Shown here: piece after piece, positions 370-47,796 of the stretch
Numbering within the stretch: position 1 is the first letter of the stretch
Layout: each line of letters opens with the position of its first letter
Source of the DNA: an uncultured Planctomycetia bacterium
GTDB lineage: Bacteria > Omnitrophota > Gorgyraeia > Duberdicusellales > 4484-171
Assembly (NCBI GenBank): GCA_964629655.1
Contig: CAZVQU010000002.1
Span: 396,878-460,877, forward strand
Direction of reading: 5' to 3'
Length of the DNA stretch: 64,000 nt
Translations under genes and position numbers: made by a program
The notes under the pieces: generated by a model
What the model saw: the letters and a program-made list of their open reading frames with translations, nothing else
Database searches by the model: none
What the model was told of the DNA's origin: nothing

Positions 370-384
370 TTTATACTTCCTTTT

Positions 385-1966: not shown

Positions 1967-1977
1967 TCGCAGGTTAA

Positions 1978-2254: not shown

Positions 2255-3151
2255 TTATTTACCCAGCTTACTATCGTAAACGCAAATCCTATCTCTTCCC
2301 AAGGCCTTAGCTCGATAAAGGGCTTTATCGGCTCTACTAATCAACTCACTCTTTTCCTGAGCATTATCGGGAATAGTAGCTAACCCTAAACTAATCGTTA
2401 TTGGGGTTTGGGTTTTAATCGCTTCCAGGAGCCTAATGCCTACCTTTCGTGCATCCTGCTGTATTGTCCTGGGCATAATTATGGTAAACTCTTCTCCTCC
2501 GTATCTAAAAACTATGTCATCCTCTCTTAGGGTATTAACAAACACTTGAGCGGCACCACGGAGTACTTCATCACCCTTGGGATGCCCGTAAGTATCATTG
2601 TATTTCTTGAAATAATCTATATCAATCATAAAAAGGGATAGCGCTTGAGGAAAACGCCTCATGTTATTGATTTGCTGAGTCAGCGTTTCATGAAAATAAC
2701 GGTGATTATAAACACCGGTCAAGCCGTCTATCGAAGACATATCCTGGTAATATTTTCCTCTCCCGGCTTGTATTGCTAAACAGGTATTTTCTACCATTCT
2801 TGTTACAATTAATCTTACCTCTTCTGCATTTAAAGGCTTCAGGAGATATGTGTAGGCACCGGCATTAAGTGCTTTTATGGCTGTGTCAATAAAAGAATAG
2901 ACGGCAAGAACGCTTACGTTAACCTTCCCGGATATTTTTTTAAGCTTTTTGACCAGCTCAATTCCGCTCATATCCGGAACATATACCTCAGAGAGAATGG
3001 CTATAAAATAAACTTGTTTAATTAGCCTCAGCGCTTCTTTGCCAGTAGTTGCTCTCCAAAGCTTATAGCTGCTTTTTTTAAAAACGCCTTCTAGCTCTCT
3101 AAAGCATTTATCATCATTTTCGACCACCAAAATATTGTATTCGCTTCCCAT
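2255..3151 (-). CDS. response-regulator receiver domain fused to a GGDEF diguanylate cyclase (298 aa)
   Basis: N-terminal REC fold (NILVVENDD...VPDMSG). The C-terminal domain has an intact GGEEF (RYGGEEF) preceded by an RxxD I-site (REDD). The position that aligns to the phospho-acceptor Asp appears to be Glu (ILSEVYVPDMSG). Confidence 0.85.
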   Translation of the reverse strand: MGSEYNILVVENDDKCFRELEGVFKKSSYKLWRATTGKEALRLIKQVYFIAILSEVYVPDMSGIELVKKLKKISGKVNVSVLAVYSFIDTAIKALNAGAYTYLLKPLNAEEVRLIVTRMVENTCLAIQAGRGKYYQDMSSIDGLTGVYNHRYFHETLTQQINNMRRFPQALSLFMIDIDYFKKYNDTYGHPKGDEVLRGAAQVFVNTLREDDIVFRYGGEEFTIIMPRTIQQDARKVGIRLLEAIKTQTPITISLGLATIPDNAQEKSELISRADKALYRAKALGRDRICVYDSKLGK

Positions 3152-3444
3152 TCTTCTCCTTGCTTTCTCTCTTCTTCTTTTAGAAAAGACCTGTCACTAT
3201 TTTTATCATAAAACTACCTTATCTTAACACGATTAGTTAATCAATTCAACATAAAAAAGGCAATTCCACCTTTGTCTTTTTTGAAATAAATAAGTCTAAC
3301 CTAAAAGTATCAACTGTAAAGAAAAGGGGAGAAAAAGTATTTGAAGAATGACAAGCACTGATTCATAACTAATTGGAATATAACTAGTTACGGATTAGAA
3401 TACCATTATCTGAAACTATTGGCTTAGAAGAAAAAATGAAAGTA

Positions 3445-4179
3445 TTATTCTTCGTCGTGTGAGGATTCTTTTGTTTTTTGTTCAATGGCGGCAATTCCTG
3501 CCTGGCGCTGCCAAATAATAAAGAAAACCAGTGAAATCAACCCTAAGGCAACAACTACTCCTAAGATCAAAAACCAAGTTGCCCTAACAGTAACTCTTTT
3601 TCCTGCTCCGCCGGCCGAAAGTTGAATTTCTAAACTCATCTTCTCTAATCTGGCCAGGGCACCTTTAATTCCATCCAGAATCTTGACGTTTTCTCTATAT
3701 ACGGCGATATGAGTCTGGGGCAGGGCATCCAGAGCCGCATTCTGCCTCTCTAAGATTTCAGCAGCTTTATCAACAACATATTCTTCCAAGGCAGCAGCTG
3801 CTTCAGCATAGGTAGTCTCTCTTAATGCCTCTACCAGCTTTCGAGCCCTAGCGATTAGACTATCAAGCTCTCGTTCCGCTATCAACCAAATATCCTTAAT
3901 CTCCAACTGACGGCTAACGCTTTCTCCGGGTGCAAGTTCAAACTGCTTATAGACATAGTAAAGGGCTTTAGTAATATCATAGTCAATCTTTAAATCACCC
4001 AGCTCAACCACATCTGCCGGCGTAGCTTCTTTAGGCAGATAGCCCTTAAGCAGAGCGTTTTGGGTTTTTGTCTTGGAAGGATTAACCACCAGAGTCCTCA
4101 AGACAACGCTACATTCTGCCTGGGCAAGCAAAAAACAAAAAACTACCCCTGTTAAGATGAATACTGTGCATCTTCTCAT
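3445..4179 (-). CDS. hypothetical exported protein with an N-terminal signal peptide and a C-terminal TM anchor (244 aa); probably co-transcribed with the giant gene (20-nt gap)
   Basis: MRRCTVFILTGVVFCFLLAQA signal. Helical, Ala/Glu-rich middle. C-terminal hydrophobic helix WFLILGVVVALGLISLVFFIIW followed by a charged tail. The start lies 20 nt after the giant ORF stop. Confidence 0.7.
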   Translation of the reverse strand: MRRCTVFILTGVVFCFLLAQAECSVVLRTLVVNPSKTKTQNALLKGYLPKEATPADVVELGDLKIDYDITKALYYVYKQFELAPGESVSRQLEIKDIWLIAERELDSLIARARKLVEALRETTYAEAAAALEEYVVDKAAEILERQNAALDALPQTHIAVYRENVKILDGIKGALARLEKMSLEIQLSAGGAGKRVTVRATWFLILGVVVALGLISLVFFIIWQRQAGIAAIEQKTKESSHDEE

Positions 4180-4199
4180 TTTCTTATTTTTCTCCTTGA

Positions 4200-7100
4200 T
4201 TATTGTTCAATATACTCTTCTACAACATCTTCAGTAAGGCCCGGTGTGCCGCCTTGGATAATACCGGGTTCTGGCTCCTCGCTTTCAACAGGTTTTGGCG
4301 TGTTTTCAACAGGTTCTTGTTCCAGGGCTTCCCCGCCTTCGCCACCTGCTGATTCCAACCAACTAGTAACTATCGGCTCATCGCTAGTCCTGGTTAATAT
4401 CTCCTGGCTCACATCAACCAAGGCCTTAATCTCCAAAGTCTTATTCTTGATATAATCCACATTCGTAGACTGACCCGTGGACAGCTCATACATCTTCTCT
4501 ATCTTAACACCCTGGCCCTCGTTTATCGCCTTAAGTTTTTGTGAAGTCACCGCTAATTGATCGTAAATAGCCTTCACAGTTGTATCGGTAAGTTCCTTCA
4601 TTTTTGAACTTAATGACGCCAACTCGCCCATACTGCCCATAATCTCGCTGATAATCGAATTGACACGGTCGACGCTATCGGTAAGCGTCTCCATCTTGGA
4701 GGTGTCGATATTAGTCAACTGAGCCATCGTAGAGGTGGCTGTGTTAGCGATAGACTCAAGGTCTGCGGAGATGACCTCAATATTTATACCGTCAAGAGTA
4801 CCATTTGTCTTTTCCTGACAAACAATGGTATGCTCGCCTCTTCCCCAGGCAAATGTCACATCGTATGCATAAATTCCTGTTCCCGAGGAAATCTCAGTCA
4901 TCGCTGCCTCATTTATCCGTGTTGCATTAGCAGCGTCGTAGACGCTGATAACCGGACTAGTACCAGTGTCGGTCTTATACCTGACGCTCAAGGTGCCGTT
5001 AGAACGAATATGACTCTCCTGATTAAGGATGCGCGAGGTGCTGGTCAGAGAAATCCTGGAAGCAATAGTCTCTCCTGAGCTTAAATCTTCTCCGCCGATT
5101 ATGCTAATCGTATCTGCAACCCCTTCGGTTACGGCATCTTCAATCACCTCGGTCTGAGTGGCTACAAGCTCTGCGGTATCGTTCTTTATCGCGGTAACTG
5201 ATTCAATAAGAGATTCCTGAACGTCCTCGGTTCCGCCAGCAACTGCATTCTCTATTGTGGAAACCGAATCTGTTAATTGTGCGGCTGTGTTAGTAAAGAA
5301 CTCATATTGGAGTATCTCTGAACCTACATCTATGTTGGCACTGGAAGCATAACCATTATCTCTATATTCAATCTCTAACACTGCCGGATAAACATAACCG
5401 GCCTCAAATTCAGTATCGGTTAGTGTAAAGTTATACATACCACTGGCAGAGACACTTGCGGTAACGGTATCTCTGACAGTCTCTCCATCGGTTTCATAGA
5501 TTGTCAAGGATGCAGGCCCTAAGTCTGATCTTTGTTCAGCTGTTGTTCCTACAAGCTTTCCTTTTCTCTGCAACGAACCAATAGCTGACAAAGTATCGAC
5601 AGCCGGACTAAAACTATAGGTCAACACCGACTCCCAAGTAACCTGGGCAGAGGCTTGGTTCTCGAGATAACAGGTGACACTATAAGTACCACCACCGTTG
5701 ACCGGTGCAGTCCAGGTAGCGGTGTTATCAATGTACTCGTTAACTGTAAAGTATGTGGTATAAGTGCTGTAGGGATATGCACTGACCCTTTCTATAGGAG
5801 AGACTAACCCCGCAGCTGACCATCCTGTTGAAGACGGTTCACTGGCCCCCACTTCCGTCAAGTTGCCCAGCGTATCATAATCCAAAACCTTAAATTGGAC
5901 CGTGGCATAACTGATGGTAAATGACTCGTCTGTTTCGTCATTTACCGTTGAGTCATTGACATCCGAAATCCGCACCTTAACCGCACTGTCTGCCTTAGGT
6001 GGGTCTACCGCTATCTTAGGATCAGGCAGAGTCCAATTATATGCATTTAGATTAGGCGTAGCAGCTATGACTGGGTTCCACGTATCACCGTCATCTAAGG
6101 TGTATTCTATTTTGACAGTGGTAATAGTTCCTCTTGTTGTCCAGTTAATTGAATGCGGTGATTTTGCTATCCAATCCTCTCCTCCATTGGGAACAAGAAT
6201 CTCGAATCCTCCCTTGATCCTAAAGAAACCGTCAGTGTCATCCGTAACACTAGTATCACCGGCATCGGTAATGCGTATTGCCAGTGTCTGGCCGGTCAAA
6301 GCAGCTTCAGGAATAGTCCAGTCATAAGAACCATCATTATCCTCGCCAGTAGCAATAATTCTCGAGGTAACAAAGCTATCATTGGAATAACTAATCATTA
6401 GATTGCTGATAGACAAACCCATCCAGCTCCAGGTAATCTCTACAGTATCACCCAAGACATACTCCTCGCCCCCTGCCGGAGCAGTTATTAGGATTATCGG
6501 CTCAGGAATAATCGTAAAATTCTCATCTGTGACATCCAAGACATTAGGCCTGCTCCCGTCAACAATCTTGAACCTTATATACGGTGAAGGGTTATCCGGT
6601 ATCTGCCAGATAGATTCTCCATCATTAGCTTCGCCTGAAGCTTCTGCCGGACTTTCCCAGTTGCTACCACCATCAACAGAATAGTAAAATACCAAATCAT
6701 CACTGACAGCGCCAACAGAAGTCCAGTGAACAATAGCAAAATCGTCAACTGCCCATTCTTCTCCTCCATTAGGCTGAGTAATGGTAATTACCGGTAAAGC
6801 AATAGTAAAGACAGCTCCCGAGGCATCAGTGGTCGAGGAACGATTAGCGTCAGTAATACGTACCAGCGTTTGTGCCTTGGCAGTAAGGAATCCGGCATCA
6901 GAAGGAACGGTCCAATCATATGTGCCATCATTGGCTTCACCGGTGGCTATCTCGACCCAGTTATCTCCATTATCTATGCTGTATTCTAGAGTCAAATTAT
7001 TGCTGATTAAGCCACTGTTATCAGTCCAGGTAATCTCATGGTCTGTACCCATAATCCAACTCTCTCCGCCGTTAGGCGCGGTAATGGTAAGTACCGGCGT

Positions 7101-10100
7101 AGGCAAGATCGAGAAGTTGGCCGCTGACTTAATCGTGCTGGCAGTGCGTCCGGTATCGGTAATCCTCAGTCTCACTGTAGTATAAAGATACTCGGGGATA
7201 GTCCAACTAAGAGTTGTCAGCTCATTATTTACATTATCAGCAATGGTGTGGATGTTCTCCTCGGTAAGAAAGTTATCATTAGAATACTCTATGATCAAAT
7301 CATCTGCCAAAGCACCTTCGCTACTCCAGCTAATCCACTCTGAATCTCCTACTGTCCATGTCTCTCCACCGTTAGGTGCAACCAGCGTAAACGTCGGTGC
7401 AGTAATGGCGAATACACCGGGAGAAACATCCTGTGGCGTATCAGCCCGTCCCATATCGGTAATTCTTATCTTGCAGGTTCCGGCAGCTGCACCGGGATCA
7501 GGAACCTCCCAGGGGTAAACACCGTCATTGTCCTCATTCTGAGTAACCATACTCCAGCTTCCGCCGCCATCAGTACTATATTGGATTCTGATATTGTTGG
7601 CAGCGACTGAACCTACTGATGTCCAAGTAATATCATGGTCAGTGCCCATTCTCCATTGCTCCCCACCGACGGGTGAGGTTACAGTAACGGTCGGTGAGGC
7701 AATAGCTAAGACGGCATCGGAAGTATCTGTTGTCGCTATGCGGTCACCGTCATACACCTTCACCTGCACAGTTTCCGAGGTATCATCAGGAATGGTCCAA
7801 GGATAAACACCATCATTAGCCTGATTCTGAGTAATAGTTGTCCAATCTGTGCCATTCTTAGAATACTTCAGCACAAGACTACCATCATGCACAGAGCCAT
7901 TTGTACCTACCGATGTCCAGGTAATATCATGGGCAGTGCCGACAATCCAAGACTCAGCACCATTAGGTGCGGTCAAAGTAAGAGAAGGTTCAACGATATT
8001 GAACACAGCATCGGAAACATCAGTAGTAGTAGGCCTGAGTGGATCGGTAATCCTGATTAAAGCTGCAGCTGTTGCACTATCCTCAACTGTCCAAGTATAG
8101 GTACCTAAAGCAGCAGTTACTCCAGTAGTAATTTCGGTCCAATCTGTGCCGTTATTAAGAGAGTATTCTATAGTCAATGGATCTACTGCGCCTGTCTTTG
8201 TCCAAGTAATTGCATAATCACCAGTAGCATACCAATCCTCTGCTCCATTAGGTGAGGTTAATGTTACCTCCGGTAACTCAATCTGAAAATAATCAGCAGA
8301 TATTCCTATAACATCTTCATATCCGGACTCATTATCGCTAATCCTAATCTTAGCTGTATTAGTAACATCTTCGGGCACATTAAGCCAATTAAACGAACCA
8401 TCATTAACTGTGTCACTAGTAATACTATTCGTATCGTCGACAAAGTCATCCTTAGAATACTCGATCTTTAATCCATCATCGGCAACTTCATCACCGTCAG
8501 TACTCCATTGAATCTCATAAGCATCAGCAACGGTTACCAGTTCTCCACCGTTAGGCTGAATAATATTAATACGTGGCCGAGAAAGAATAGTAAAGTTATT
8601 GTCAGAGTCATCTGTAACAGCATTCCTTTCATTATCAGTAATACGTACCTTAACTGTTGTTGACTCATCATCAGGTATAGTCCAGGTGTAACTATTTACT
8701 GCTTGTTCAGCTGCCGGAGTGCCGGCTGTCGGCTCTGGGTCAATAAACTTACGTCTCTCATAGTGGGCTGTGATTTCATCAGCACTAAGGGCCCGGTTGT
8801 AGACAGTTAGTCCGTCCAATTTTCCTGCCAGATACGTATCCGAATCACTCCTCTTAAAAGAATATAAAGCCTGTGAGGATGTTGCAATTGGGCTACTCCA
8901 AGCTTCACTAGCGACCTCACTGCCATCCTTGTAGATTTTTGCATACGTGCCATCTGTTACCCAAGCTAAATGAACCCATTGATTAGTTCCAATAGGAGTT
9001 GAAGTTTCTGCTCGCTTGGCTGAATTAATCCAAAACTCTAAATACCCATCAGAAGTTATATCACATGCAATCTGATCTTCACTCGCCCATGCATGCAATG
9101 TGCCTACGTTAGTGCTGCTCGGATATGAGGTAATATAAACCCATTGTGTATTAGTGGTATATGTTTCACCTGAAAAAAGATTATTTGCTACAGTCATATA
9201 ATCACTTGTGCCATCAAAAGAAAGTACGCTACCAGTAGAGAATGTGGTAGGATCAGTGTCTGCATCCCAGGTTGCACCGGTGATGGTACCAGTATTTCCC
9301 TGTCTTGAGGAGTCAGCTGCAGTTGTGCCGCTACCCTCATCCAAGTTCCAGACACCAATTAAGCCGTTTCCAATATCATAGTGTTCTCTTATCTTCTCAG
9401 CTGTAAGCACATTGCTATGCAAACGCAATTCATCGATTCTACCACCGCAATAATCATCATTGGCTTCGCCTACTCTAAGAGCGGTGGTATCAACTCCTGA
9501 ACTTGTAGTCACAGCAACATGATTCCAACCAGCAGATAAGTCTTGTGAGCTTGAATCAGCATTAACGTAGATAGTCGGAGAAGTAAATCCGGTTGCGGTA
9601 ATCGCTCCCGAAGCTATTGATATATATATTGTATCATCGACTAATTCTAAAATTCCATCATCGCTATTATCATTATTCACCCAGAATTCCACTGTCTTTG
9701 TATCTGCGCTGATATCGCCGACATCTGTATAGGCATCGGTATCGTTAAAGACTAATGAACCTCCTAATTTGCCGGTTGACCAGTCTGCTCCTGACACAGG
9801 CGAATCTGTTATATGGTGCTGGGTTGCGTCTGAGTCATTGAACGTTCCGTCGTTACCTTGCCCTGAACTATCTGAAATCACAGTCTGGTCAGTTACATCT
9901 GTTTCGTCAAAGCTATAGAGTGCAACCAAGTCGGTTTCATCACTAAATACTCCATTATAATGCTCAGTTACTTCACTACCACTTAAAGCACGAGTGTAGA
10001 TGCGGACTTCGTCAATGGAGCCGGGAAAAGGTATAGATGGCGGGGCTGTAGTCGCATGCGCCCCTATGACAGCTGAATAGGTGTTACCGGTTACGCTTTG

Positions 10101-33294: not shown

Positions 33295-33297
33295 AAT

Positions 33298-34698: not shown

Positions 34699-34755
34699 AA
34701 TAACTGAAAATTAAAATGGTTTTATCTTCTAATGTCAAACGTACAGGGGAAGGCT

Positions 34756-38056: not shown

Positions 38057-38150
38057 AATTTTGCCCTAGAGTTAACGATTTCTCCTATGATTTTTTTATC
38101 CCCAACAGATTCATTTTCCTTATCTAAACCAAAAATCTGATAGTAACCCA

Positions 38151-38378
38151 TCAAATGCCCTCTAACTGTTTTCTAATTAAACGTAAAGGATAACCTTCAT
38201 TCATAAGCCGGGTTATCTTAGCCAACCTTCTTCTGACCTCAGCCTGATTATACATCCGCACATTGCCTTTTTTGGTTGCTATGCGCAAAAGGCCGAAATT
38301 AGTGTAGTGATTAACAGTCTGGTAAGTAATGCGGTACTTTTTTGTAATCTCCTGGGCTGATATTAGCTTACCATCCAT
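38151..38378 (-). CDS. small MerR-like (BldC/excisionase-type) HTH DNA-binding protein, 75 aa, copy 1
   Basis: ISAQEITKKYRITYQTVNHYTNFGLLRI..KKGNVRMYNQAEVRRRLAKITRLMNEGYPLRLIRKQL matches the MerR N-terminal HTH-wing. There is no effector domain. The DNA is 100% identical to the copy at 47268-47495. Confidence 0.7.
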   Translation of the reverse strand: MDGKLISAQEITKKYRITYQTVNHYTNFGLLRIATKKGNVRMYNQAEVRRRLAKITRLMNEGYPLRLIRKQLEGI

Positions 38379-38533
38379 ATTAGCTTTTCCGTACTTTCTT
38401 AGGTATTAATATACTTATGGTAACTACAATAGATATGGTTATCATTGTATATACTACAACCTTCTTATATTACCACAGCCTTTCGCTTATTCTCTCCGTG
38501 GTGTTTATCGCTTAGACCGAATCTAGACAATGA

Positions 38534-41500
38534 TTAATCCCAAGAATCCCACTCTAAGGCTTGGCGGGCCTTAATTATCCAACCAGCCACTTGCGACTCA
38601 TCTTCAGCAACAGGCTTGAGATCAAGGTATTCCTGATAATGCTGGATAGCCTTTCTTTTCTCATTTAGATGGTCATCATAGATAAGAGCTAAATTGTAGT
38701 GGGCATCAGCATCGTTAGGGTTAATTTTCAACACCTCTTCATATTCCATGGCAGCTTCGTGATACCTTTCGTTGTAGTCGAGTTCGAAAGCCTGGTAATA
38801 GTGTTGGCTGAGAAGATTCTCATCTATCTCTTCCTCCTTTTTGAAAACTTTTTCTTTGATCATCCGAGCTTGAGACAAATTCTTCCACTGCCTCGTCTTC
38901 TTTCTCTTCTCAGATAATATTTCCTTCATTTCTTGGTTAGCCCGGGCAGCATCTCGTTCGGCCTTTTCTATTTTGGCAAACTCCTTTTTCCTCTTAGCTT
39001 CCAACACTTCCATCTCAAGTCCCCACTTTTCTTCACCCCAATCACTAAATTTCTTATGCAAAATTGTAAAAGAGGTTTTAAGATTTCCGAATGCTGTGTT
39101 TACTAGAGTCTCCTGATCTTTGATATCTTTAAGGTTTTTCTGTGCAACTTCTAAATCATTCTGGATAGGAATTATCTCTTTTTCAACATCTTCAAGACTT
39201 TTGCGGATCTTCGGCAACTTCACTTGAAGTGATTTTTCTTTTTCGTTAAGTTTTTCTAATCCTGTTTCTTCTTCCTCCAGGGATTTACCCAAATTAATTA
39301 TTCTCTTTTGCGATCCATCAATTTCTGCCTTTTTTTCTGAAATTTCAAATTCCAATTGTTCCTGCTTTCTACCTAATCTTGCTACTTTCGTCTCTTGGTC
39401 TTCAGTCAGTTTATTGAACTCATAGATATCTACCTTAATTACCTCTCTTTCTCTTACAAATTGGTCAGCCTTTCTTTTAAAATCTCTCTTTTGAATCGTA
39501 AGTTCTCCCAACCGGCTGGTAGAACCAGCTAGGCGCACAGCCACCTCTTCTATTTCCTTTTGAATTACCCTCTCATCTTTCTTCAAGTTATCGAGCTCAA
39601 TCTTAAAAGCCTTCTCCTGCCTACCTAGCTGCTCTTCCTGAACCCAGGTTTTATCGATAAGGCGATTTATCATAGTTATTTTTTGTTGGGATCCCCGACG
39701 CCGGGAGGTTATCTCAGAGAGTTTGTTTTCCTGAATCTGTTCATCCTTGTCTAGAAAAATGAGCTTTTCTTCAGCTTCAGCTAAAGAAGCGGTGGCCTCA
39801 ATTATCTGGTTGGCCAAAAACTCTTTTTCAGTATTAAAGCTCTGAAATTCCTTATTGATCCGGGCTTGTTCACGGACAAATCCATCTTGTTTCTTTTTCT
39901 CCTGATCGATCCGGGAGGATATCTGGGAGATGCTCAGATCGAATCCCAGGGTTGCATTCTTGAATTCATCCTTCTGCCGGGATATTTCTTCTTCCCTATT
40001 AAGCTTCTCTTGGGCCAAGTCTTTTTGAAACCGACTTATCTTAACTTGTGACTCTTTCTGGAAAACTAATATCTGATTAAGTTCGGATTTAAGGGCTTGC
40101 TGTTTTTGGATTAGCTCACTAATTTTTACCGTATAACCTTTTAACCCTTTTTCTCCGGCCTCGATAGCGCCTTTTAAATCTTGTTGTTGAGTAGTTAGGG
40201 TTATGATCTCTTCGGTCAAGGCGTTCTTTTCTAAAGATAGTTTATTTTGGAAGGATTTTTCTTGGTTGAAGGAACGAGATGTTTTCTCTATTTCGGCCTG
40301 GATATCTTCTCTGCTTTTTACCACCGAATCCATCTCAGCCTGAAGAAGTTTCTCCTGTCTACTTAGCCGCTCTCCGGCCTGCTTATTCTTTTTTAAACCA
40401 GTGAGCTTTTCTTTAGCTCTAGCTAAAGAAGCGATGGCATCAGTTATCTGTTTGGCCAAAATCTCTTTGTCAGCCTTAAAGCTATTGAATTCCTCATTGA
40501 TTCGGGGCTGTCGGCGGATAAGCTCATCTTGTTTCTTTTTCGCCTGGTTAATCCGGGATGATATCTGAGGAATATCCATACCAATAAGTTCTATATTCTT
40601 TTCTATCCCTGATAGAGTAACGATAAAAGCTTTTTCCCTTTCTAAAGATTGGGATTGCTCTTGCTCTGCCTGCTCTTTTTGAACTAAAAAGTCTTCGCTC
40701 TTGTTTTTAAGAATTTGTAATTCTTTTTGCAATAACTCAAGACGACTGGTCAGCTTTTTCTCTTCGGATACAATCTCAGCTTCCTCAACCTGAGCTTTAT
40801 CGATAAGATCACTTAGCATAATTATCTTTTGTTGGTATTCCTGACTCTGGGAGGCTATCTGGGAAAGTTTATCTTTCTGAACTTGTTGATCCTTTTTAAA
40901 ACCAGTGAGTTTTTCTTTGGCTTTAGCTAAAGAAGCAGTGGCATCAGTTATCTGTTTGGCCAAAATCTTTTTGTCAGCCTTAGAGTTATGAGATTCCTCA
41001 TTGATCCGGGTTTGATTCCTAGTAAGCTCATCTTGTTTCTTTTTCGCCTGGTCGATCCAGGAGGATGTCTGGGAAATATCTATGCCAATAAATTCTATAT
41101 TCTTCTCTATCTCTGATAAGGTAATGACAGAAGCTTTCTCTCTTTCTAAAGATTGGGGTTGCTCTTTTTCAGCCAAGAAGTCTTTATTCCTGTTTTTAAA
41201 AGTTTTTAATTCTTTTTGTAATAACCCAAGCCGCCTGGTCAGCTTTTTCTCTTCGGATACAATCTCAGCTTCCTCAACCTGAGCTTTATCGATAAGATGA
41301 CTTAGCATAACTATTTTTTGTTGGTATTCCTGACTCTGGGAGGCTATCTGGGAAAGTTTATTTTTCCGAGCCTGTTGATCATTCTTTAAAACAGTGAGTC
41401 TTTCTTTAGCTTTAGCTAAAGAAGCAACGCCTTCAGTTATCTGTTTGGCCAAAATCTCTTTGTCAGCCTTAGAGCTATGAAATTCTTCATTGATTCGGTT

Positions 41501-44500
41501 TTGATTCCTAGTAAGCTCATCTTGTTTCTTTTTCGCCTGGTTGAACCGGGAGGATATCTGGGAAATATCTATGCCAATGAGTTCTATGTTCTTTTCTATC
41601 CCTGATAGAGTAACGATAAAAGCTTTTTCTCTTTCTAAAGATTGGGAAGCCTGAATTTTTTTATCATCAATGTCATTAAGGATATCTACTATTTCCCTCT
41701 GTATAGCTTCCCTATCAGTAGTAAGTTTTGTAAGAGCGACTCTTTTATCAACTTCTTTTTCAGGGCTAAGTTTAGAAATTTTATCCTGCATTTTTCGTTC
41801 TTGAATAACAATCTTTCTTTCAGCACTCTTTTTTGTTTTTAAAAGGGAACTCAACCTTTTCATTTCATCCTTGCCTACTTTTCCTAAAATAAGAAGCACC
41901 TCAGCTAGTCCTGCTTCTGAAGTTTCTCTATTGCCAATTAATACCTGCCTTGCATTTCTCTTTTCTTCCAACAGCGCCTTCAATTTTAACAGCTTAATAT
42001 TGTTGTCTTTAATCTCTGACTTTATACTGGAAATTTTTAGCTTAGTAGAATCTTGATACGCAGAAATATCTTTATTAGCAGCTTGATGGATTTTTAATGT
42101 TTTATTCGCTTCGTCGATTTGACTTTTAATATTTTTTTCCGTACGAGTTAATCTTATCTCTTTTATTTTTAAAGAATCTTTAGTAATACTTAACTCACCG
42201 TAGGTATCTTTAGCTTCGGCAAAAAGATCTTTTAGCCTAACGATTTCGGCCTGGATATCTTCTCTGCTTTTTACCACCGAATCCATCTCAGCCTGAAGAA
42301 GTTTCTCCTGTTTACTTAGCCCCTCTCCGACCTGCTTATTCTTTTTTAAAACAGCGAGCTTCTTCTCAGCCTCAGCTATCTGTTTGGCCAAGTCCTCCTT
42401 CTCACCATCGATGTCATAAAGCTCCTCACTAATTCGAGGTTGTCGACGGATAAGCTCATCTTGCTTATTTCTTGCCTGGCTGATCCGAGAGGATATCTGG
42501 GAAATATCCATGCCAATGAGTTCCATATTCTTTTCTATCCCTGATAGAGTAACGATAACAGCTTTTTCTCCTTCTAAAGATTGGGATTGCTCTTGCTCTA
42601 CTTGCTCTTTTTGAACCAAGAAGTCTTTGCTCTTGTTTTTAAGAGTTTGTAATTCTTTTTGGAATAACTCAATCCGGCTAGTCAGCTTTTTCTCTTCGGA
42701 TACAGTCTCGTCTTCCTGAACTTGGGTTTTATGGATAAGGCGCTCTAGCATAGTTACTTTTTGTTGGTGTTCCTGACTCTGGGAGGCTATCTCGGAAAGT
42801 TTATCTTTCTGAACTTGTTGATCCTTTTTAAAAACAGTGAGTTTTTCTTTAGCTTTAGCTAAGGAAGCAGTAGCTTCAATTATCTGGCTGGCTAAAATCT
42901 CTTTATTGGTATTAAAACTATGGAATTCCTCACTAATACGGGGTTGTCTCCGGATAAGCCTATCTTGTTTCTTTTTCGCCTGGTTGAGCCGGGAGGATAT
43001 CTGGGAGACGTCCATATCAATGATTTCTATATTCTTCTCTATCCCCGATAAGGTAACGATAACAGCTTTTTCTCCTTCTAAAGATTGGGATTGCTCTTGC
43101 TCTACTTGCTCTTTTTGAACCAAGAAGTCTTTGCTCTTGTTTTTAAGAGTTTGTAATTCTTTTTGCAATAACTCAAGCCGGCTGGCCAGCTTCTTCTCTT
43201 CAGATACAATCCTAGACTCCCGAACCTGGGTTTTATAGATAAGGCGGTCTAGCATAGTTACTTTTTGTTGGGATTCCTGGCTCCGGGAGGTTACCTGGGA
43301 AAGTTTATCTTTCTGAACCTGTTGATCATTTTTTAAAACAGTGAGTTTTTCTTTGGCCTCGGCTAAAAAGGTAGTACCCTCAATTATCTGGTTGGTCAAA
43401 TCCTTTTTCTCAGCATCGATGTCATAAAGCTCCTCGTCAATCCGGGTTTGTTGCCGAGTAAGCTCAGCCTGTTTCTTTTTCTCCTGGTTGAGCAGGGAGG
43501 ATATCGGAGAGATGCTCAGATCGAATTCCAGGGTTGCATTCTTAAAATGCTCATCCTGCCAGGATATTTCTTTTTCCTTATTAAACTTCTCTTGGACCAA
43601 GTCATCTTGAAACCGTCTTATCTTAGCTTGTGATTCTTTCTGAAAAGTTAATATATGCTTCAGGCCGGATTCAAGGGATTTTTTCTTTTCCTTAATTAAA
43701 ATATTTCCTTTAGCTTGCTCTTTAGCTAAAACATTTATCTCTTCCTTTATCTCACCTATTCGCAGCTTGATATTTTCCTTTTCCTGTCCAAGAGAAACAA
43801 GGACTTCCTGAGTATTTTTATAGCCTTTAGAAATATTTTCTAGATGTGACTCCTCATCCTCTAACAAATCTTCTTGTTCTAATATCTCGCTTTTTAAAGC
43901 AGCTTTTTTACTGTCCACTATTGAAAGCTCGGCTAAAACCTCTCTTTGTTCTTTTAAAACCTTTTCTTTTTCCTGATTTTTTCCACTTATGTCGCTTTTT
44001 AGACTCTCTATCTCTTTCTGGATAATTCTTTCCTTTGAAAATATTTTTAGAGACACATGGCCTTTTTTTTCTTTGGTTTTAAGGATATTTTGTTGTTTAT
44101 CAAAAAATTCATTTTCAAGAAGCTTGACTGTTTTCTTAATATCTCTTATTCGTTTTCCTAAATCTGCAATTTCAGAATTAACCCTTAAAAGCTCTAACCC
44201 TGCTGGCTTTGCTCTTTCCTCCAACCTTGTCAAGAGTTGCCTTTCTTTTTCTAAGGAATTCTTAACATTCAATATGTTGGTTTCTGTATTTCTCTGCTCA
44301 GTAATATTTTTCGATATCTCTGCTACTGTTTCACTTTCTTGCCACAAGAGGTTTTGCTTAACTTTTTCTTTCTCGCCTAAAGCAGAATAAATATCTTCAA
44401 CCACGTCTCCAGCTAATTCTTTATCTCTCTCAATACCCATTAATTGTAGTGTCAGTTCTTTCTCCTGTTCATCCAATTCTTTTTCCTTCAAAGACCCTTC

Positions 44501-45325
44501 TGCTAAAAGTTGGTCTAATCTCTCAATTTTTGTTTGGAAACCCTCTGGCTTAGAAGAACTAAATTTCCCAACCTTAGCTCTAACTTCAGCTACTTCTCGT
44601 TCAACTTGTACCTCGATTTTTCTTTGTATTCTCTTGTGGAATTTTTCATCTTTTTTAGCTTCTTTCGCGGCTCGAGCTTCTATTTTTTGGGCACCTAGTT
44701 CAATTGCTTTTTCCTCCTTCTTGTGGATTTTTTCAGCTTTCCTAGCTTCCTTCGCAGCTAGAGCTTCTATTCTTTGGGCGCCTAGTTCAATTGCTTTTTC
44801 CTCCTTCTTCCGGATTTTTTCAGCTCTCCTAGCTTCCTTTTCAGCCTGAGCTACTTCTCGCTTAACTTGCACCTCGACTTCTCTTTGTATTTGCTTGCGG
44901 ATTTTTTCAGCTTTCTTAGCTTCCTTCGCGGCTAGAGCTTTTTTTCTTTGAGCAGCTAGTTCAGCTGCCCTCTGTTCCTTTTTGCGGAGTTTTTCAGCTT
45001 TCTTAGCTTCCTTCGCGGCTTTAGCCTTCTCTCTTTGAGCAGCTAGTATAGCTGCCCTTTGTTCCTTTTTGCGGAGCTTTTCAGCTTTCTTAGCTTCCTT
45101 CGCGGCTTTAGCCTTCTCTCTTTGAGTAGCTAGTTCAGCTGCCCTTTGTTCCTGCTTATTGAGTTCTTCAACTTGTTTATCCTTTTCATTTTCAGAGTCA
45201 ATAAGAAGAATCTCTTTAGAGTATTCTTCTAAATCGCTGTCCTTTGCTGATGCTACAAAGTCATTTACAAAAAAGACAGTTAAAAGCAGGGCCAATATAG
45301 GGATGTAATTTTTCTTTAACATCAT
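38534..45325 (-). CDS. giant secreted coiled-coil protein with internal tandem repeats and a C-terminal TPR (2,263 aa)
   Basis: Signal peptide MMLKKNYIPILALLLTVFFVNDFVASA. About 6 K/A/E-rich repeats of 25-28 aa (KEQRAAELAAQREKAKAAKEAKKAEKLRKK). About 7 copies of a roughly 160-aa unit (SLE(G/R)EKA.IVTLSGIEKNIE.IG.DISQISSR.NQAKKKQDEL.R.Q.RI.EE…). C-terminal TPR (YNERYHEAAMEYEEVLKINPNDADAHYNLALIYDDHLNEKRKAIQHYQEYLDLKP). Confidence 0.85.
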   Translation of the reverse strand: MMLKKNYIPILALLLTVFFVNDFVASAKDSDLEEYSKEILLIDSENEKDKQVEELNKQEQRAAELATQREKAKAAKEAKKAEKLRKKEQRAAILAAQREKAKAAKEAKKAEKLRKKEQRAAELAAQRKKALAAKEAKKAEKIRKQIQREVEVQVKREVAQAEKEARRAEKIRKKEEKAIELGAQRIEALAAKEARKAEKIHKKEEKAIELGAQKIEARAAKEAKKDEKFHKRIQRKIEVQVEREVAEVRAKVGKFSSSKPEGFQTKIERLDQLLAEGSLKEKELDEQEKELTLQLMGIERDKELAGDVVEDIYSALGEKEKVKQNLLWQESETVAEISKNITEQRNTETNILNVKNSLEKERQLLTRLEERAKPAGLELLRVNSEIADLGKRIRDIKKTVKLLENEFFDKQQNILKTKEKKGHVSLKIFSKERIIQKEIESLKSDISGKNQEKEKVLKEQREVLAELSIVDSKKAALKSEILEQEDLLEDEESHLENISKGYKNTQEVLVSLGQEKENIKLRIGEIKEEINVLAKEQAKGNILIKEKKKSLESGLKHILTFQKESQAKIRRFQDDLVQEKFNKEKEISWQDEHFKNATLEFDLSISPISSLLNQEKKKQAELTRQQTRIDEELYDIDAEKKDLTNQIIEGTTFLAEAKEKLTVLKNDQQVQKDKLSQVTSRSQESQQKVTMLDRLIYKTQVRESRIVSEEKKLASRLELLQKELQTLKNKSKDFLVQKEQVEQEQSQSLEGEKAVIVTLSGIEKNIEIIDMDVSQISSRLNQAKKKQDRLIRRQPRISEEFHSFNTNKEILASQIIEATASLAKAKEKLTVFKKDQQVQKDKLSEIASQSQEHQQKVTMLERLIHKTQVQEDETVSEEKKLTSRIELFQKELQTLKNKSKDFLVQKEQVEQEQSQSLEGEKAVIVTLSGIEKNMELIGMDISQISSRISQARNKQDELIRRQPRISEELYDIDGEKEDLAKQIAEAEKKLAVLKKNKQVGEGLSKQEKLLQAEMDSVVKSREDIQAEIVRLKDLFAEAKDTYGELSITKDSLKIKEIRLTRTEKNIKSQIDEANKTLKIHQAANKDISAYQDSTKLKISSIKSEIKDNNIKLLKLKALLEEKRNARQVLIGNRETSEAGLAEVLLILGKVGKDEMKRLSSLLKTKKSAERKIVIQERKMQDKISKLSPEKEVDKRVALTKLTTDREAIQREIVDILNDIDDKKIQASQSLEREKAFIVTLSGIEKNIELIGIDISQISSRFNQAKKKQDELTRNQNRINEEFHSSKADKEILAKQITEGVASLAKAKERLTVLKNDQQARKNKLSQIASQSQEYQQKIVMLSHLIDKAQVEEAEIVSEEKKLTRRLGLLQKELKTFKNRNKDFLAEKEQPQSLEREKASVITLSEIEKNIEFIGIDISQTSSWIDQAKKKQDELTRNQTRINEESHNSKADKKILAKQITDATASLAKAKEKLTGFKKDQQVQKDKLSQIASQSQEYQQKIIMLSDLIDKAQVEEAEIVSEEKKLTSRLELLQKELQILKNKSEDFLVQKEQAEQEQSQSLEREKAFIVTLSGIEKNIELIGMDIPQISSRINQAKKKQDELIRRQPRINEEFNSFKADKEILAKQITDAIASLARAKEKLTGLKKNKQAGERLSRQEKLLQAEMDSVVKSREDIQAEIEKTSRSFNQEKSFQNKLSLEKNALTEEIITLTTQQQDLKGAIEAGEKGLKGYTVKISELIQKQQALKSELNQILVFQKESQVKISRFQKDLAQEKLNREEEISRQKDEFKNATLGFDLSISQISSRIDQEKKKQDGFVREQARINKEFQSFNTEKEFLANQIIEATASLAEAEEKLIFLDKDEQIQENKLSEITSRRRGSQQKITMINRLIDKTWVQEEQLGRQEKAFKIELDNLKKDERVIQKEIEEVAVRLAGSTSRLGELTIQKRDFKRKADQFVREREVIKVDIYEFNKLTEDQETKVARLGRKQEQLEFEISEKKAEIDGSQKRIINLGKSLEEEETGLEKLNEKEKSLQVKLPKIRKSLEDVEKEIIPIQNDLEVAQKNLKDIKDQETLVNTAFGNLKTSFTILHKKFSDWGEEKWGLEMEVLEAKRKKEFAKIEKAERDAARANQEMKEILSEKRKKTRQWKNLSQARMIKEKVFKKEEEIDENLLSQHYYQAFELDYNERYHEAAMEYEEVLKINPNDADAHYNLALIYDDHLNEKRKAIQHYQEYLDLKPVAEDESQVAGWIIKARQALEWDSWD
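39600..43700 (-). repeat. tandem units of about 480-660 nt inside the coiled-coil gene (about 7 copies at 70-90% nucleotide identity)
   Basis: The recurring nucleotide block ggaaagtttatctttctgaac(t/c)tgttgatc…agtgagtttttctttggctttagctaaagaagcagtggcatcagttatctgtttggccaaaatc has copies near 39720, 40380, 40860, 41343, 42340, 42797 and 43299. Confidence 0.8.
44620..45150 (-). repeat. short tandem repeats of about 80-110 nt encoding the K/A/E-rich N-terminal repeat region of the coiled-coil protein
   Basis: Repeated tttttcagctttcttagcttccttcgcggct(a/t)gagc…ttgagcagctagttcagctgccc(t/c)ttgttcctttttgcgga. The shadow ORF 44634-44849 shows the periodic FWAPSSIAFSSF. Confidence 0.75.
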
Positions 45326-45335
45326 TTTTTTATTC

Positions 45336-47198
45336 CTATAATGCTTCTGTGCGAATTTTGCGCCTTGGCGGCTTCCGCCGCTTTTTTCCTTCCCTATAGT
45401 ATTTTGAATTTTTCTTTGTTTTATCTATCTGCTCCACGTATAAAATATCTTTATCCCCGGATATAATACGTGGAGTGAGAAATATTACTAATTCCTTCAT
45501 CTCCTTGGTATTATAGGTAGACTTGAACATTTTTCCCAAAAAAGGAATATCGCCTAGAAAGGGAGTCTTTTTTTCGGATTCAGTCATGGTTTCCCTAATC
45601 ATCCCGGCAATAATCACAGTTTTCCCGTCTTGAATCAAAGCAGTTGTCTCAGCATTAGATGTATCTACCTCCGGCAGGAGAATTTGGCTTGTTCCGGCTT
45701 CATCCTGTATCTCAAACCAATCTATCAACGTACTCACTTCGGGCTTAATATGCATCTTTACAAAATCCCCTTGATAAATCGTAGGGGTAACCGTAAGGGT
45801 TACGCCGACATCTACGAATTCTGCGCTCCAGGAGGTAGAAGATGCAGTATCGGTGTTAGAAATTGTGCTGGTAGCATAAGGCTGACGCGTACCGACCATA
45901 ATCTTAGCCTCTTCATTGTTGCAAACAACAATATGAGGAGAAGAAACAATTTTAACTTTACCCACTTCGTTTAAGAAGGTAAGAATCTGCTGCGCTTGGG
46001 TAGGGTCTAATCCTCCGGGATTCCAAGCTTCTGAAGTTGTCCCCTCGCCGGTATAAAATCCCTCTCGCCATCGTCCTAGAGAAATCCGGCCGTAAGAACT
46101 TGTTATCCCCGAAGCCGGGAAGTCACCTGTAATCCTTATATTCTTCCTTGATGAAGCCTTGAACATTGTCTCCCAGTCCACGCCAAAAGAAAAATCATCA
46201 CTTAAAGTTATCTCAACAATCTTTGCTTCAATAAATATTTCTTTTGACTGGGTATCAAAAGTAGCAATCATCTCTGTAATCTCTTCAATCTTATTAGGCA
46301 AATCATTTACAATTATTTTATTTGTCCTCTCATCGGCGCGAGCAGAGCCAAAACCTTCGGTCAAAGCCTCAGTCACCTTTAGTACAAGATCTTCAGCTTG
46401 GGAATACTTTAACTCAAACACTTTGGTAATCGTCGGCGGCATCTTTTCGATAATACCTTCATCAAGCCGTAGCGCAGAGCTTTCCATTTCTCTTATCTTC
46501 TCCGGTGTATCTATTAAGATAAGACTGCCGGTAGCATCATCCATAATAATCTTACCAATAGAACTTTTAATGCTTGCTAAAGCCTCTCCGGCTTTTGTGG
46601 ACTGAATATACTTTAGCTTCAAAGTTTTAATTTCTCTTTTTTCGGTGTATTTCTCTCCATAGAGCGCTTCATACTCTACCTCAGTCAATATGGTAATAAT
46701 GTTTTTCTTTTTTTCACAAGCCAGTTTATTAGTAAGCAAGATTACATCCAGTGTGTCAGCGATAGTTACATCTTTTAGAAACAGGGTTATCCTTCCAGAA
46801 ACATTTTTACTGGTAACAATATTCAAACCGCCTTTCAGTGATAAAAACTTAATAGTATCAACTATATCCATACCCCGTAAATCCAGCGATATTTTCTTAG
46901 CCAGGCCTTCTTCCATAGTAAGAGGGACTTTCTCAATATCCGAAGATTCATCGGCAGACGAAGCCGTTTCTTTAGAGGCAGCTGCATCAATCTCTTCAAG
47001 TAACTGAACCTGCCCTATCGCATCAGTTAAGTCTTCTTCGGTGATAAGAGAGGTTTCGAGATCCAAAGATTCCTCAGTAGGCGAAACCGTCTCTTTAGAG
47101 ACAGCTGAGGTAGTCTCCTCAAGAGATTTAGCCTGTTCTGCTCCAGCGACTAAACCAACAACAACCAATATTAACACTATCCAATTTATCTTTCTCAT
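45336..47198 (-). CDS. secretin, GspD/PilQ family (620 aa), copy 2; paralog of 35679-37406 with a 45-aa N-terminal insertion
   Basis: Same N-terminus (MRKINWIVLILVVVGLVAGA) and same secretin C-domain. 276 nt (46681-46956) and about 100 nt (46271-46374) are identical to copy 1. The extra segment ITEEDLTDAIGQVQLLEEIDAAASKETASSADESSD is itself an internal duplication. Confidence 0.85.
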   Translation of the reverse strand: MRKINWIVLILVVVGLVAGAEQAKSLEETTSAVSKETVSPTEESLDLETSLITEEDLTDAIGQVQLLEEIDAAASKETASSADESSDIEKVPLTMEEGLAKKISLDLRGMDIVDTIKFLSLKGGLNIVTSKNVSGRITLFLKDVTIADTLDVILLTNKLACEKKKNIITILTEVEYEALYGEKYTEKREIKTLKLKYIQSTKAGEALASIKSSIGKIIMDDATGSLILIDTPEKIREMESSALRLDEGIIEKMPPTITKVFELKYSQAEDLVLKVTEALTEGFGSARADERTNKIIVNDLPNKIEEITEMIATFDTQSKEIFIEAKIVEITLSDDFSFGVDWETMFKASSRKNIRITGDFPASGITSSYGRISLGRWREGFYTGEGTTSEAWNPGGLDPTQAQQILTFLNEVGKVKIVSSPHIVVCNNEEAKIMVGTRQPYATSTISNTDTASSTSWSAEFVDVGVTLTVTPTIYQGDFVKMHIKPEVSTLIDWFEIQDEAGTSQILLPEVDTSNAETTALIQDGKTVIIAGMIRETMTESEKKTPFLGDIPFLGKMFKSTYNTKEMKELVIFLTPRIISGDKDILYVEQIDKTKKNSKYYREGKKRRKPPRRKIRTEAL

Positions 47199-47267
47199 AT
47201 CAGTTCAATCTTCTTCGTCATCAACCGACCTTTTCCTTATCTAAACCAAAAATCTGATAGTAACCCA

Positions 47268-47495
47268 TCAAATGCCCTCTAACTGTTTTCTAATTAAACG
47301 TAAAGGATAACCTTCATTCATAAGCCGGGTTATCTTAGCCAACCTTCTTCTGACCTCAGCCTGATTATACATCCGCACATTGCCTTTTTTGGTTGCTATG
47401 CGCAAAAGGCCGAAATTAGTGTAGTGATTAACAGTCTGGTAAGTAATGCGGTACTTTTTTGTAATCTCCTGGGCTGATATTAGCTTACCATCCAT
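47268..47495 (-). CDS. small MerR-like HTH DNA-binding protein, copy 2. The track ORF extends to 47522 through an alternative upstream ATG, but the copy-1 homology starts at MDGKL.
   Basis: The coding sequence and about 50 nt of 3' flank are nucleotide-identical to 38100-38392. The two copies diverge 12 nt upstream of the ATG. Confidence 0.65.
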   Translation of the reverse strand: MDGKLISAQEITKKYRITYQTVNHYTNFGLLRIATKKGNVRMYNQAEVRRRLAKITRLMNEGYPLRLIRKQLEGI

Positions 47496-47796
47496 ATTAG
47501 CTTTTCCGTTTACTGCCGCCATTTGTATAGTACCTTAATACTCCACTGTGATCTAGACATTAATTAGTCAACTTATGATACCTACCATAAGTATGACTCT
47601 TATTGAACCTATCATAAAAAGACTTTGTTGCCAAGAAACATCTAAAGATGACAATCCGTACAATTGATATCAAGTTATTGTGGTAAATACAATAACTATA
47701 GTTATTATTGAATTTATCACAAAACCAATAACTTGTCAATATTTTGTTAAATATTATAAAAATGAGGAGCCGGAGCTGAATATATTAGCAAAAATG

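Follow-up and report, generated by a model that had tools for sequence, protein, structure and literature searches.

A 64,000-nucleotide stretch of DNA from an uncultured Planctomycetia bacterium (contig CAZVQU010000002.1, GTDB phylum Omnitrophota; hereafter the window) encodes two secretins, a giant exported protein of 9,419 amino acids (aa), a small protein of 244 aa (u244) and a diguanylate cyclase. On balance, we think that this region is probably the upstream two-thirds of a conserved Omnitrophota supra-operon for a type II secretion system (T2SS)-like machine of the type IV filament kind, with a large adhesin in its cargo slot. Gene content, conserved order, domain identities, gene fusions and motifs for cyclic di-GMP (c-di-GMP) were observed directly, and a functional linkage of the secretins, the giant and the u244 locus is supported by the sequences. 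The Omnitrophota, a widespread group of uncultured and ultrasmall bacteria, are presumed to live on other cells, and the way in which they attach has been deduced from gene content only. The arrangement is consistent with published ideas on how these tiny bacteria attach to host cells. It joins giant open reading frames (ORFs), genes resembling those of T2SS or type IV pili (T4P) and a non-canonical F-type ATPase in one conserved order, whereas the literature, in its accessible parts, reports them separately or as loose neighbors. Furthermore, a plausible c-di-GMP switch and three conserved pieces, i.e., an N-terminal and a C-terminal module of the giant (N-module and C-module) and the u244 anchor, were defined.

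Gene order in the window and in related genomes

Nearly all long ORFs of the window, and every gene between positions 1 and 47522 described below, lie on the minus strand. A first-pass annotation, made from the sequence letters and a list of ORFs, had proposed a sensor kinase with its regulator, a giant fibre with lectin-like and Ig-like modules, a possible membrane-anchor partner, a diguanylate cyclase and two secretins, each accompanied by a TPR/coiled-coil protein and a small MerR-like gene. All of these genes are present and real. Kinase, regulator, giant modules and cyclase were confirmed by Pfam and NCBIfam searches, the presumed anchor u244 (3445-4179) is a signal-peptide protein with a C-terminal transmembrane (TM) helix, and both secretins have the companions assigned to them. 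One gene had been overlooked, coding for a GspC/PilP-like bitopic protein of 217 aa (37403-38056).

Species-representative genomes were scanned with an alignment of the secretin family, which resulted in 38 loci; 37 were counted and one outgroup with 32% identity was left out. ORFs of these relatives were labelled by the window's proteins, and the counts refer to loci with enough sequence. In the 37 species-level Omnitrophota loci the order is MerR, (AAA_22 ATPase), GspC-like, secretin, TPR, (histidine kinase and response regulator), and a DUF2341 protein or other big ORF. A GspC-like gene directly upstream of the secretin was found in every case (27/27) and a TPR gene directly downstream in 28 of 30, while MerR precedes the secretin in 18 of 23 loci and the AAA_22 gene occurs in 23 of 24. 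Kinase and regulator are present in 12 of 28 loci, which correspond to the clade with secretins at least 58% identical. A DUF2341 protein or an ORF of at least 1,000 aa follows downstream on the same strand in 15 of 20 loci, as compared to 3 of 16 upstream on either strand.

The same locus was approached from its other side using u244. In the first three contexts of u244 homologs (n=3), a big ORF is followed by u244, a peptidase and/or response regulator-GGDEF gene, and an F-type ATPase operon containing an MshEN-T2SSE gene, then by T2SSF in two and by a T2SSG pseudopilin plus an N_methyl gene in one. A metagenome scan with the u244 alignment gave 62 loci. In all 30 with at least 3 kb of upstream sequence, an ORF of at least 1,000 aa ends within about 450 bp of u244 (27 loci) or is fused to it (3 loci). 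ATPase genes lie downstream of u244 in 26 of 29 loci, a peptidase gene follows in at least 16 of 29, a REC-GGDEF gene is located at most 3 kb downstream in 13 of 29, and GspE is found within 10 kb in 15 of 16. The expectation of the first-pass annotation that its components would be linked in related genomes is therefore borne out, as the order recurs in the 37 species-level loci and in about 30 further u244 loci. Overall, about 100 related Omnitrophota loci share the sequence of secretin module, big ORF, small anchor protein and ATPase plus engine.

The complete arrangement is covered by three contigs. These are the window, ZHAN22-2 scaffold_5 (L004+L047), whose slot holds a DUF2341 protein of 843 aa together with a protein of 3,457 aa, and Ga0302250_1000002, where a 12,503-aa ORF fills the gap between secretin module and u244. 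In a further locus, L034, secretin and TPR genes are directly followed by u244, the response regulator-GGDEF gene, ATPase genes and GspE. Judged from this contiguity and from the spanned contigs, secretin module and engine thus form a single operon-like unit in two halves, with the giant in a variable slot between them.

The engine starts just past the window edge. A second assembly (L050), found by a look-up with the b/delta fusion subunit of the window's F-type ATPase (385-1116; Pfam OSCP and ATP-synt_B), equals window positions 11116-1 over its first 11,116 bases with 0 mismatches and runs 9,616 bp further. Beyond the edge it encodes, in this order, atpA, atpG, atpD, gspE(MshEN), atpC, gspF, gspG, gspI-like, gspJ-like, gspK and pilM/N; within this one genome, the GspE, F, G, I-, J-, K-like and PilM/N genes lie 3.4-9.6 kb outside the window, counted from its position 1. 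GspG exceeds the cut-off of its family (TIGR01710, 112 bits, cut-off 88.85). GspE (TIGR02533, 557 bits, cut-off 630; PilB model, 534 bits) and GspF (TIGR02120, 357 bits, cut-off 424) have these Gsp models as their best-scoring families, GspK reaches 102 bits (NF037980, cut-off 130), and the GspI-like (26 bits) and GspJ-like (35 bits) proteins are both well below cut-off. A PilM/PilN fusion (498 aa, running off L050) occupies the place of GspL/M. PilO and a PilA-type pilin were not seen in the sequence available, in which the pilin-like genes score best as GspG/I/J/K.

The F-type ATPase operon (window 1-2190 plus L050:8927-16506) has the order atpE, peptidase, atpF/H, atpA, atpG, atpD, gspE, atpC, gspF, with gspE inserted between the beta and epsilon genes. 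It begins with the 70-aa c subunit (1978-2190), and the 5′ part of the alpha subunit gene (1-369) continues past the window edge. No a-subunit gene is visible in these intervals. With this order, F-type ATPase and type IV filament genes lie within 10 kb of each other on one contig, in L050 and likewise in 15 of 16 relatives with enough sequence. Between the c and b/delta genes, a secreted MA-clan zinc metallopeptidase is encoded (1190-1966), which has a signal peptide, an HEMGH motif and a match to Pfam Peptidase_MA_2 above cut-off (E=5.5e-10).

Since neither GspE nor GspF nor pilin genes occur within the window, one could assume a secretion system of a new type that consists only of secretins, TPR proteins and MerR regulators and works without inner-membrane components of T2SS or T4P. 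Indeed, the first-pass annotation had stated that the locus is not a complete T2SS, T4P, type I (T1SS) or type V (T5SS) secretion system and not a described secretion-system type. The former statement holds for two of these systems: no T1SS (RTX/LapA-type) or T5SS domains were detected by Pfam and NCBIfam scans in the giant or its neighbors, nor a sorting-tag domain in the giant, whose signal is N-terminal and of Sec type. In contrast, a T2SS-type engine is present just past the edge in the same genome, and the apparent lack of a T2SS/T4P core is therefore an effect of the window end. The latter statement has to be given up in view of GspE/F/G, the I/J/K-like proteins and PilM/N in L050, which are contiguous with the secretin module in L034. 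A system without such an engine is highly improbable, the more so as the locus encodes a GspC-type adaptor, which normally couples a secretin to the inner-membrane platform.

The duplicated secretin module

In reading direction, the second module copy comes first. It is headed by an 84-aa MerR-like helix-turn-helix gene (copy 2, 47268-47522; Pfam MerR_1 E=4e-9), followed by a 620-aa secretin (paralog 2, 45336-47198; Pfam Secretin E=2e-47, Secretin_N E=2.5e-18) and an exported coiled-coil protein of 2,263 aa with a C-terminal TPR region (38534-45325; TPR_11/17/16 at aa 2182-2238). The first module copy consists of a 75-aa MerR-like gene (copy 1, 38151-38378; Pfam MerR_1 E=3e-9), the 217-aa protein, a 575-aa secretin (paralog 1, 35679-37406; Pfam Secretin E=3e-48) and a TM-anchored coiled-coil protein of 308 aa with C-terminal TPR matches (TPR308, 34756-35682).

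By their domains, both large proteins are secretins; the 620-aa paralog has a signal peptide, an acidic linker, an STN/N0-like domain, two Secretin_N domains and the secretin domain. The subtypes PilQ (258 bits for the 575-aa and 257 bits for the 620-aa secretin, NCBIfam cut-off 284) and GspD (TIGR02517, 242 and 236 bits, cut-off 351) are similar in score, and both are below the curated cut-offs. PilQ and GspD are also the nearest solved structures to the 575-aa secretin, at about equal distance, and an AMIN domain was found in neither secretin in Pfam and NCBIfam scans. The 575-aa secretin has more than 900 homologs, and those named by taxon belong mostly to Omnitrophota.

The 217-aa protein has a cytoplasmic N-terminus, one TM helix and a periplasmic HR-type domain. 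A profile of 18 orthologs matches 3oss_C (E=8e-6), i.e., the GspC HR domain crystallised with GspD N0-N1, and the same profile matches PilP (3jc8) more weakly (E=0.11). Matches of the single protein to Pfam T2SSC (E=1.6e-4) and NCBIfam GspC_delta (E=4e-5) are below cut-off, and it has no PDZ domain. According to the profile comparison, the protein is a GspC/PilP-type secretin-binding adaptor.

The TPR308 gene overlaps the secretin stop by 4 nt, and the protein weakly resembles the TPR pilotins Tgl and PilW (NCBIfam, E=3e-8 and 3.5e-7). In some relatives (P0051-54, P0065, P0037), the TPR protein is joined to the secretin C-terminus as a fusion, which makes it very likely that the two proteins act together. 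We regard TPR308 as a putative pilotin-like partner of the secretin. The C-terminal 90 aa of the 2,263-aa protein are 50% identical to TPR308, and the long protein is seen here as an expanded paralog. It contains about seven repeats of approx. 170 aa (60-82% identical) and is rich in K/E/L/Q. Its ortholog in locus L001 has 1,057 aa at the same position, and in other loci there are paralogs 746-839 aa long. If it formed one continuous coiled coil, the 2,263-aa protein would be far longer than the width of the periplasm.

The two secretins are 79% identical in protein and 88-94% in DNA. A 279-bp exact direct repeat (47231-47509 = 38114-38392, 9.1 kb apart) holds both MerR genes, and the 75-aa core of copy 2 is identical to copy 1. 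The MerR repeat is exact while the adjoining secretin genes have diverged to 88-94% DNA identity, which suggests either recent gene conversion or selection for identical regulators. An assembly artefact was considered as origin of the duplication and rejected. In L001, an independent genome and the closest relative with enough sequence, the module is likewise duplicated in tandem, and a long coiled-coil TPR paralog is part of it; therefore, the duplication is real and older than the source genome.

Most relatives carry an additional gene for a 287-aa AAA_22 ATPase between the MerR and GspC-like genes, overlapping the latter by about 40 nt. Its best match is TIGR03015 (E=1e-51, below cut-off), a family which we take to be related to GspA/ExeA and MshM. 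Besides the window, L001, L009, L014 and L016 lack this gene.

The giant protein, u244 and c-di-GMP motifs

The giant is encoded by an unbroken ORF (4200-32459). Its N-terminus consists of a basic stretch and a hydrophobic helix (aa 22-45 in an AlphaFold2 model) serving as signal or anchor helix, and its composition is rich in Gly/Thr/Ser/Asp. Pfam families found in the giant are restricted to four DUF2341 and seven Laminin_G_3 (LamG) stretches plus Ig-like repeats. After the N-module, pairs of LamG domains are followed by tandem repeats, further LamG/DUF2341 units, Ig-like repeats, the C-module and an acidic tail. Internal repeats were mapped by self-search in chunks, which revealed about 11 tandem repeats of approx. 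290-370 aa (aa 1700-4940, 45-65% identity) and about 10 Ig-like repeats of approx. 97 aa (aa 7920-8850). The repeat core (aa 1700-4940, window approx. 17600-27400) has a G+C content of 0.49-0.50 as compared to about 0.40 in the flanks. This is consistent with the Gly/Thr/Ser/Asp-rich composition rather than with a foreign origin.

Both ends of the giant are conserved. The N-module (aa approx. 46-600, window approx. 30660-32324) is a separate DUF2341 protein of about 700-1,000 aa in most relatives (38-57% identity), with 38-44% identity to stand-alone proteins of about 830 aa, and its taxon-named homologs are mostly Omnitrophota. Its AlphaFold2 model (predicted local distance difference test, pLDDT, 87.8) shows ConA-like beta-sandwiches with CBM66, legume lectins and GH16 as best domain-level matches, which points to a lectin-like, carbohydrate-binding fold. 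The C-module comprises the last approx. 570 aa (aa approx. 8800-9370, window approx. 4350-6062) and matches the extreme C-terminus of big ORFs before u244 in about 40 loci, with E-values down to 1e-136. Neither a Pfam nor a PDB family was detected for it, only apolipoprotein-like helical low-complexity matches.

For u244, the AlphaFold2 model (pLDDT 84.6) consists of a small beta-sandwich, a three-helix bundle and a long C-terminal TM helix, and no solved structure matches with E<1e-3. Homologs named by taxon are again mostly from Omnitrophota. In three fused big ORFs (L085, L086, L096), the C-module is directly continued by the u244 module. Head, body and anchor are thus encoded as one, two or three polypeptides across genomes: head and body are fused in the window, a separate DUF2341 head protein exists in most relatives, and body and u244 are fused in three. 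Such variable fusions constitute gene-fusion evidence for a joint function, according to which lectin head, giant body and u244 would function together.

The slot of the giant varies not only in its large ORF. Toxin-antitoxin (TA) pairs (NTP_transf_2/HepT), AbiEii and Y1 (IS200-like) transposases recur between secretin module and giant in relatives (L004:12756-13441, L007:14033-15031, L008:15000-20532, L114:15167-16117), and the slot looks like an insertion hot spot. In a clade with 46-50% identical secretins, three small signal-peptide genes always precede the giant (L007:15028-16627, L114:16114-17656); the proteins have about 140, 175 and 190-225 aa and no family matches.

Several features of the locus recall filament-associated adhesins such as PilY1 or MshQ, and the giant could accordingly sit on the tip or shaft of a (pseudo)pilus via the GspI/J/K-like complex. 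LamG domains are a typical feature of adhesins associated with pili. L008, L015, L017 and L040 have two to four genes with prepilin motifs immediately upstream of the secretin module, and the gene content partly resembles the MSHA pilus: an MshL similarity of the secretin (187 bits, cut-off 250), an MshN-like TPR protein beside the secretin, an MshEN-type ATPase, a large protein with LamG domains encoded nearby in the locus and, in relatives, AAA_22 (TIGR03015, E=1e-51). However, a prepilin-type N-terminus of the giant was looked for and rejected, as the signal is an ordinary Sec-type one. Membership in the MshQ family was likewise rejected, no MshQ or PilY1 family match being found, and only a partial resemblance is kept. 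The locus also differs from MSHA in its gene order, its Gsp-like pseudopilins, the lack of AAA_22 in the window and the lack of MshI/J/K assignments; of the features that define MSHA, it has the MshEN domain. The fusions to TM-anchored u244 in three relatives place the C-terminus of the giant at the inner membrane and not at a pilus. We therefore regard a filament-bound adhesin as unlikely. A comparison of the giant with haloarchaeal TafC gave a sub-threshold match at the LamG level (E=1e-28, 100 bits, cut-off 410).

Genes for signalling lie on both sides of the giant. Upstream, a sensor histidine kinase (33298-34698, HisKA_3/HATPase_c) has a periplasmic loop of about 180 aa between two TM helices, and its orthologs (44-65% identity) take the same position in the clade with secretins at least 58% identical. 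The adjacent NarL/LuxR-type response regulator (32641-33294; Response_reg E=7e-29, GerE E=1e-17) has syntenic orthologs with 62-74% identity. Downstream of u244, the REC-GGDEF diguanylate cyclase (2255-3151; GGDEF E=2e-43) contains the motif RxxD-5-GGEEF at aa 209-222, that is, an intact GGEEF plus an RxxD I-site. A possible receptor is found in the engine, since the N-terminus of GspE carries the tandem MshEN motif RLGEILVQKKLITTQQLEAGLKEQ and matches the MshE-type c-di-GMP domain model NF053729 with 59.9 bits (cut-off 38). No Rfam family reached its gathering score anywhere in the window, and therefore no c-di-GMP riboswitch is present at this threshold. Promoter and terminator scans at the module borders gave counts equal to the shuffled expectation and are thus uninformative.

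Proposed mechanism and comparison with known systems

Based on these observations, we propose the following chain of events for a T2SS-like machine with an adhesin as cargo. The kinase/regulator pair and the MerR proteins would control transcription. c-di-GMP made by the REC-GGDEF cyclase would activate the MshEN-GspE ATPase. The giant would be exported by Sec, and its C-module would dock on the inner-membrane anchor u244, to which it is covalently joined in some relatives. The pseudopilus engine would then push the lectin-headed fibre out through the secretin, the exposed head could bind glycans on a host or prey cell, and the secreted MA-clan peptidase may process or release the giant. The passage of the giant through the secretin, in particular, is inferred from gene content and order.

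In its strongest form, this would be an undescribed contact apparatus: a lectin-headed megadalton fibre, held at its C-terminus by u244, threaded through a dedicated secretin, triggered by c-di-GMP and releasable by a metallopeptidase, i.e., type II secretion of a tethered cargo, with a pseudopilus engine that is linked to an F-type ATPase of its own by its genes and perhaps also in its energy supply, for gripping host cells. All of these elements taken jointly are a speculative proposal to which we give a rather low probability. If true, a tethered T2SS cargo would widen the known range of secretin transport. The analysis predicts interfaces between C-module and u244, between the GspC-like protein and the secretin N0 domain, and between the TPR protein and the secretin C-terminus, as well as binding of c-di-GMP by GspE.

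A number of observations weigh against the supra-operon reading with the giant as cargo. Neither of the two module copies in the window contains an AAA_22 gene (37403-38378 compared with L002, L004, L006 and L007). No big ORF follows in five of the 20 secretin loci whose downstream sequence reaches at least 6 kb, and L034 lacks the giant altogether, so that the machine exists without it. As u244 is kept in this giant-less locus, it may be a part of the machine rather than the anchor of the giant. Most engine proteins score below the NCBIfam equivalog cut-offs, and GspH, a prepilin peptidase and PilT were not seen in the 9.6 kb beyond the window. To our knowledge, there is no precedent for a T2SS cargo of about 1 MDa (a size estimate) or for a membrane-tethered one. 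Finally, the accessible text of Seymour et al. (2023, PMC10066038) classes such loci as type IVa pili (T4aP), not as T2SS.

As an alternative, the genes could form one island but have separate jobs, namely an ordinary type IVa-like pilus and an independent, Sec-exported and membrane-anchored giant/u244 envelope or coat protein, both co-regulated for host attachment. The published TXSScan-based T4aP class of such loci, co-located with F-type ATPases in the accessible part of that paper, speaks for this alternative, as do the persistence of the machine without the giant (L034; 5 of 20 secretin loci), a secretin as near to PilQ as to GspD, and the missing precedent for megadalton or tethered T2SS cargo. 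The frequent TA modules and Y1 transposases between secretin module and giant also suggest a loosely coupled, exchangeable insert. On the other hand, all three contigs that cover the locus completely have the giant between the two parts of one machine, and conserved N- and C-modules together with u244 flank it in about 30 loci with secretin identities of 47-100%. The pseudopilin set includes GspG above the equivalog cut-off and GspI/J/K-like genes, not a PilA-type pilin; neither PilT nor an AMIN domain was seen. In addition, a fibre that is anchored in the inner membrane by its C-terminus and carries lectin domains at its far end needs a route across the outer membrane. We consider separate functions the most serious competitor of the supra-operon reading, but a less probable one. 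The first-pass annotation itself had named, as an outcome that would speak against it, T2SS/T4P operons revealing these secretins as ordinary. To a large extent such genes were found, yet machine and giant still form one conserved locus.

With the supra-operon reading in mind, the locus can be compared to known systems. It resembles T2SS in its secretin, GspC-type HR adaptor, GspE, GspF, GspG, GspI/J/K-like minor pseudopilins and putative cargo with a Sec signal, and resembles systems with c-di-GMP-responsive GspE/MshE in the N-terminal MshEN domain of the ATPase and the diguanylate cyclase in the locus. In contrast to T2SS, a putative cargo gene of 28 kb parts the genes into two blocks, and an F-type ATPase operon is interleaved with them. 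A PilM/PilN fusion is found where GspL/M would be expected, GspH and the prepilin peptidase were not seen in the 9.6 kb beyond the window, and the secretin partner is a TM-coiled-coil-TPR protein instead of a GspS-type pilotin. Furthermore, the secretin module is duplicated, and the putative cargo has about 1 MDa and a membrane-anchored partner. A purely functional analogy exists to Lap (LapA, LapD, LapG), where genes for a giant adhesin with repeats, for c-di-GMP signalling and for an exported protease also occur together; by this analogy, the gene set suggests regulated retention and release. However, LapA is secreted by a T1SS, carries a C-terminal signal as well as RTX repeats and is held in a TolC-like pore, whereas here a Sec signal, a secretin, a T2SS-type engine and an MA-clan metallopeptidase instead of a LapG-type cysteine protease are found.

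The likeness to published giant-gene neighborhoods of Omnitrophota, suggested by the first-pass annotation, is apt (West-Roberts et al., 2023; a 2026 preprint; Seymour et al., 2023). In Omnitrophota, T2SS/T4P-like genes are reported to usually flank the giant genes (West-Roberts et al., 2023, 10.1101/2023.11.21.568195; 2026 preprint, 10.64898/2026.06.07.730766). The present locus shares with these the very long gene beside gspD/E/F-like genes, c-di-GMP-related genes nearby and the proposed adhesion to prey or host. The giants of West-Roberts et al. have at least 25-147 thousand aa, many TM helices, and SecA-like and enzyme domains (“Archaeovorins”, dockerin type), and belong to a system of more than 10 genes with rcpC and a rotamase before, and pilZ genes and sugar importers after the giant (10.1101/2023.11.21.568195). 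In contrast, the giant described here has 9.4 thousand aa, a single N-terminal hydrophobic helix and lectin/Ig-type modules only; the numerous TM regions, divergent SecA_DEAD and multi-enzyme or dockerin content that define “Archaeovorins” and dockerin-type giants are absent from it. Neither of the two works mentions DUF2341, Laminin_G or an F-ATPase operon beside a giant gene.

Seymour et al. (2023, Nat Microbiol, PMC10066038), in the accessible part of their text, describe for every Omnitrophota class that F-type ATPase genes are co-located with genes of type IV filaments; for class Omnitrophia, they also report giant ORFs carrying Laminin_G_3 domains. Our locus agrees with theirs in having F-type ATPase genes beside type IV filament genes, here interleaved. 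Within the same part of the text, giant ORFs and ATPase/T4aP loci are kept as separate traits, and neither the secretin-GspC-like-TPR module, u244, the GGDEF gene nor a giant between module and engine appears; mention of the peptidase and of the exact ATPase/gspE interleaving was not found there. Family scans favor T2SS-type pseudopilins over T4a pilins, unlike the T4aP class assigned in that text. DUF2341/LamG giants between secretin module and ATPase/engine are unmentioned in West-Roberts et al. (2023), the 2026 preprint and the accessible part of Seymour et al. (2023). In summary of this comparison, the kind of system is largely published, as giant genes beside T2SS-like loci and as F-ATPase/T4aP loci. 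New are the unification of these genes in one order, a slot for the cargo, the families of N-module, C-module and u244 with their fusions, the explicit c-di-GMP link, and the make-up of the secretin module from GspC-like, TPR and MerR genes.

Outside the locus, truA (47797-48555) precedes MerR copy 2 in reading direction, and leu, fab, plsX, recG and other genes farther upstream are housekeeping genes. Among the relatives, L034 (JAIWAR010000001.1), L009-L011, L015, L017 and others are labelled “Methanosarcinales archaeon” or “uncultured Planctomycetia”. Such labels on Omnitrophota-type loci are probably due to mis-binning or coarse taxonomy, but the Methanosarcinales label could instead mirror a physical association with a host.

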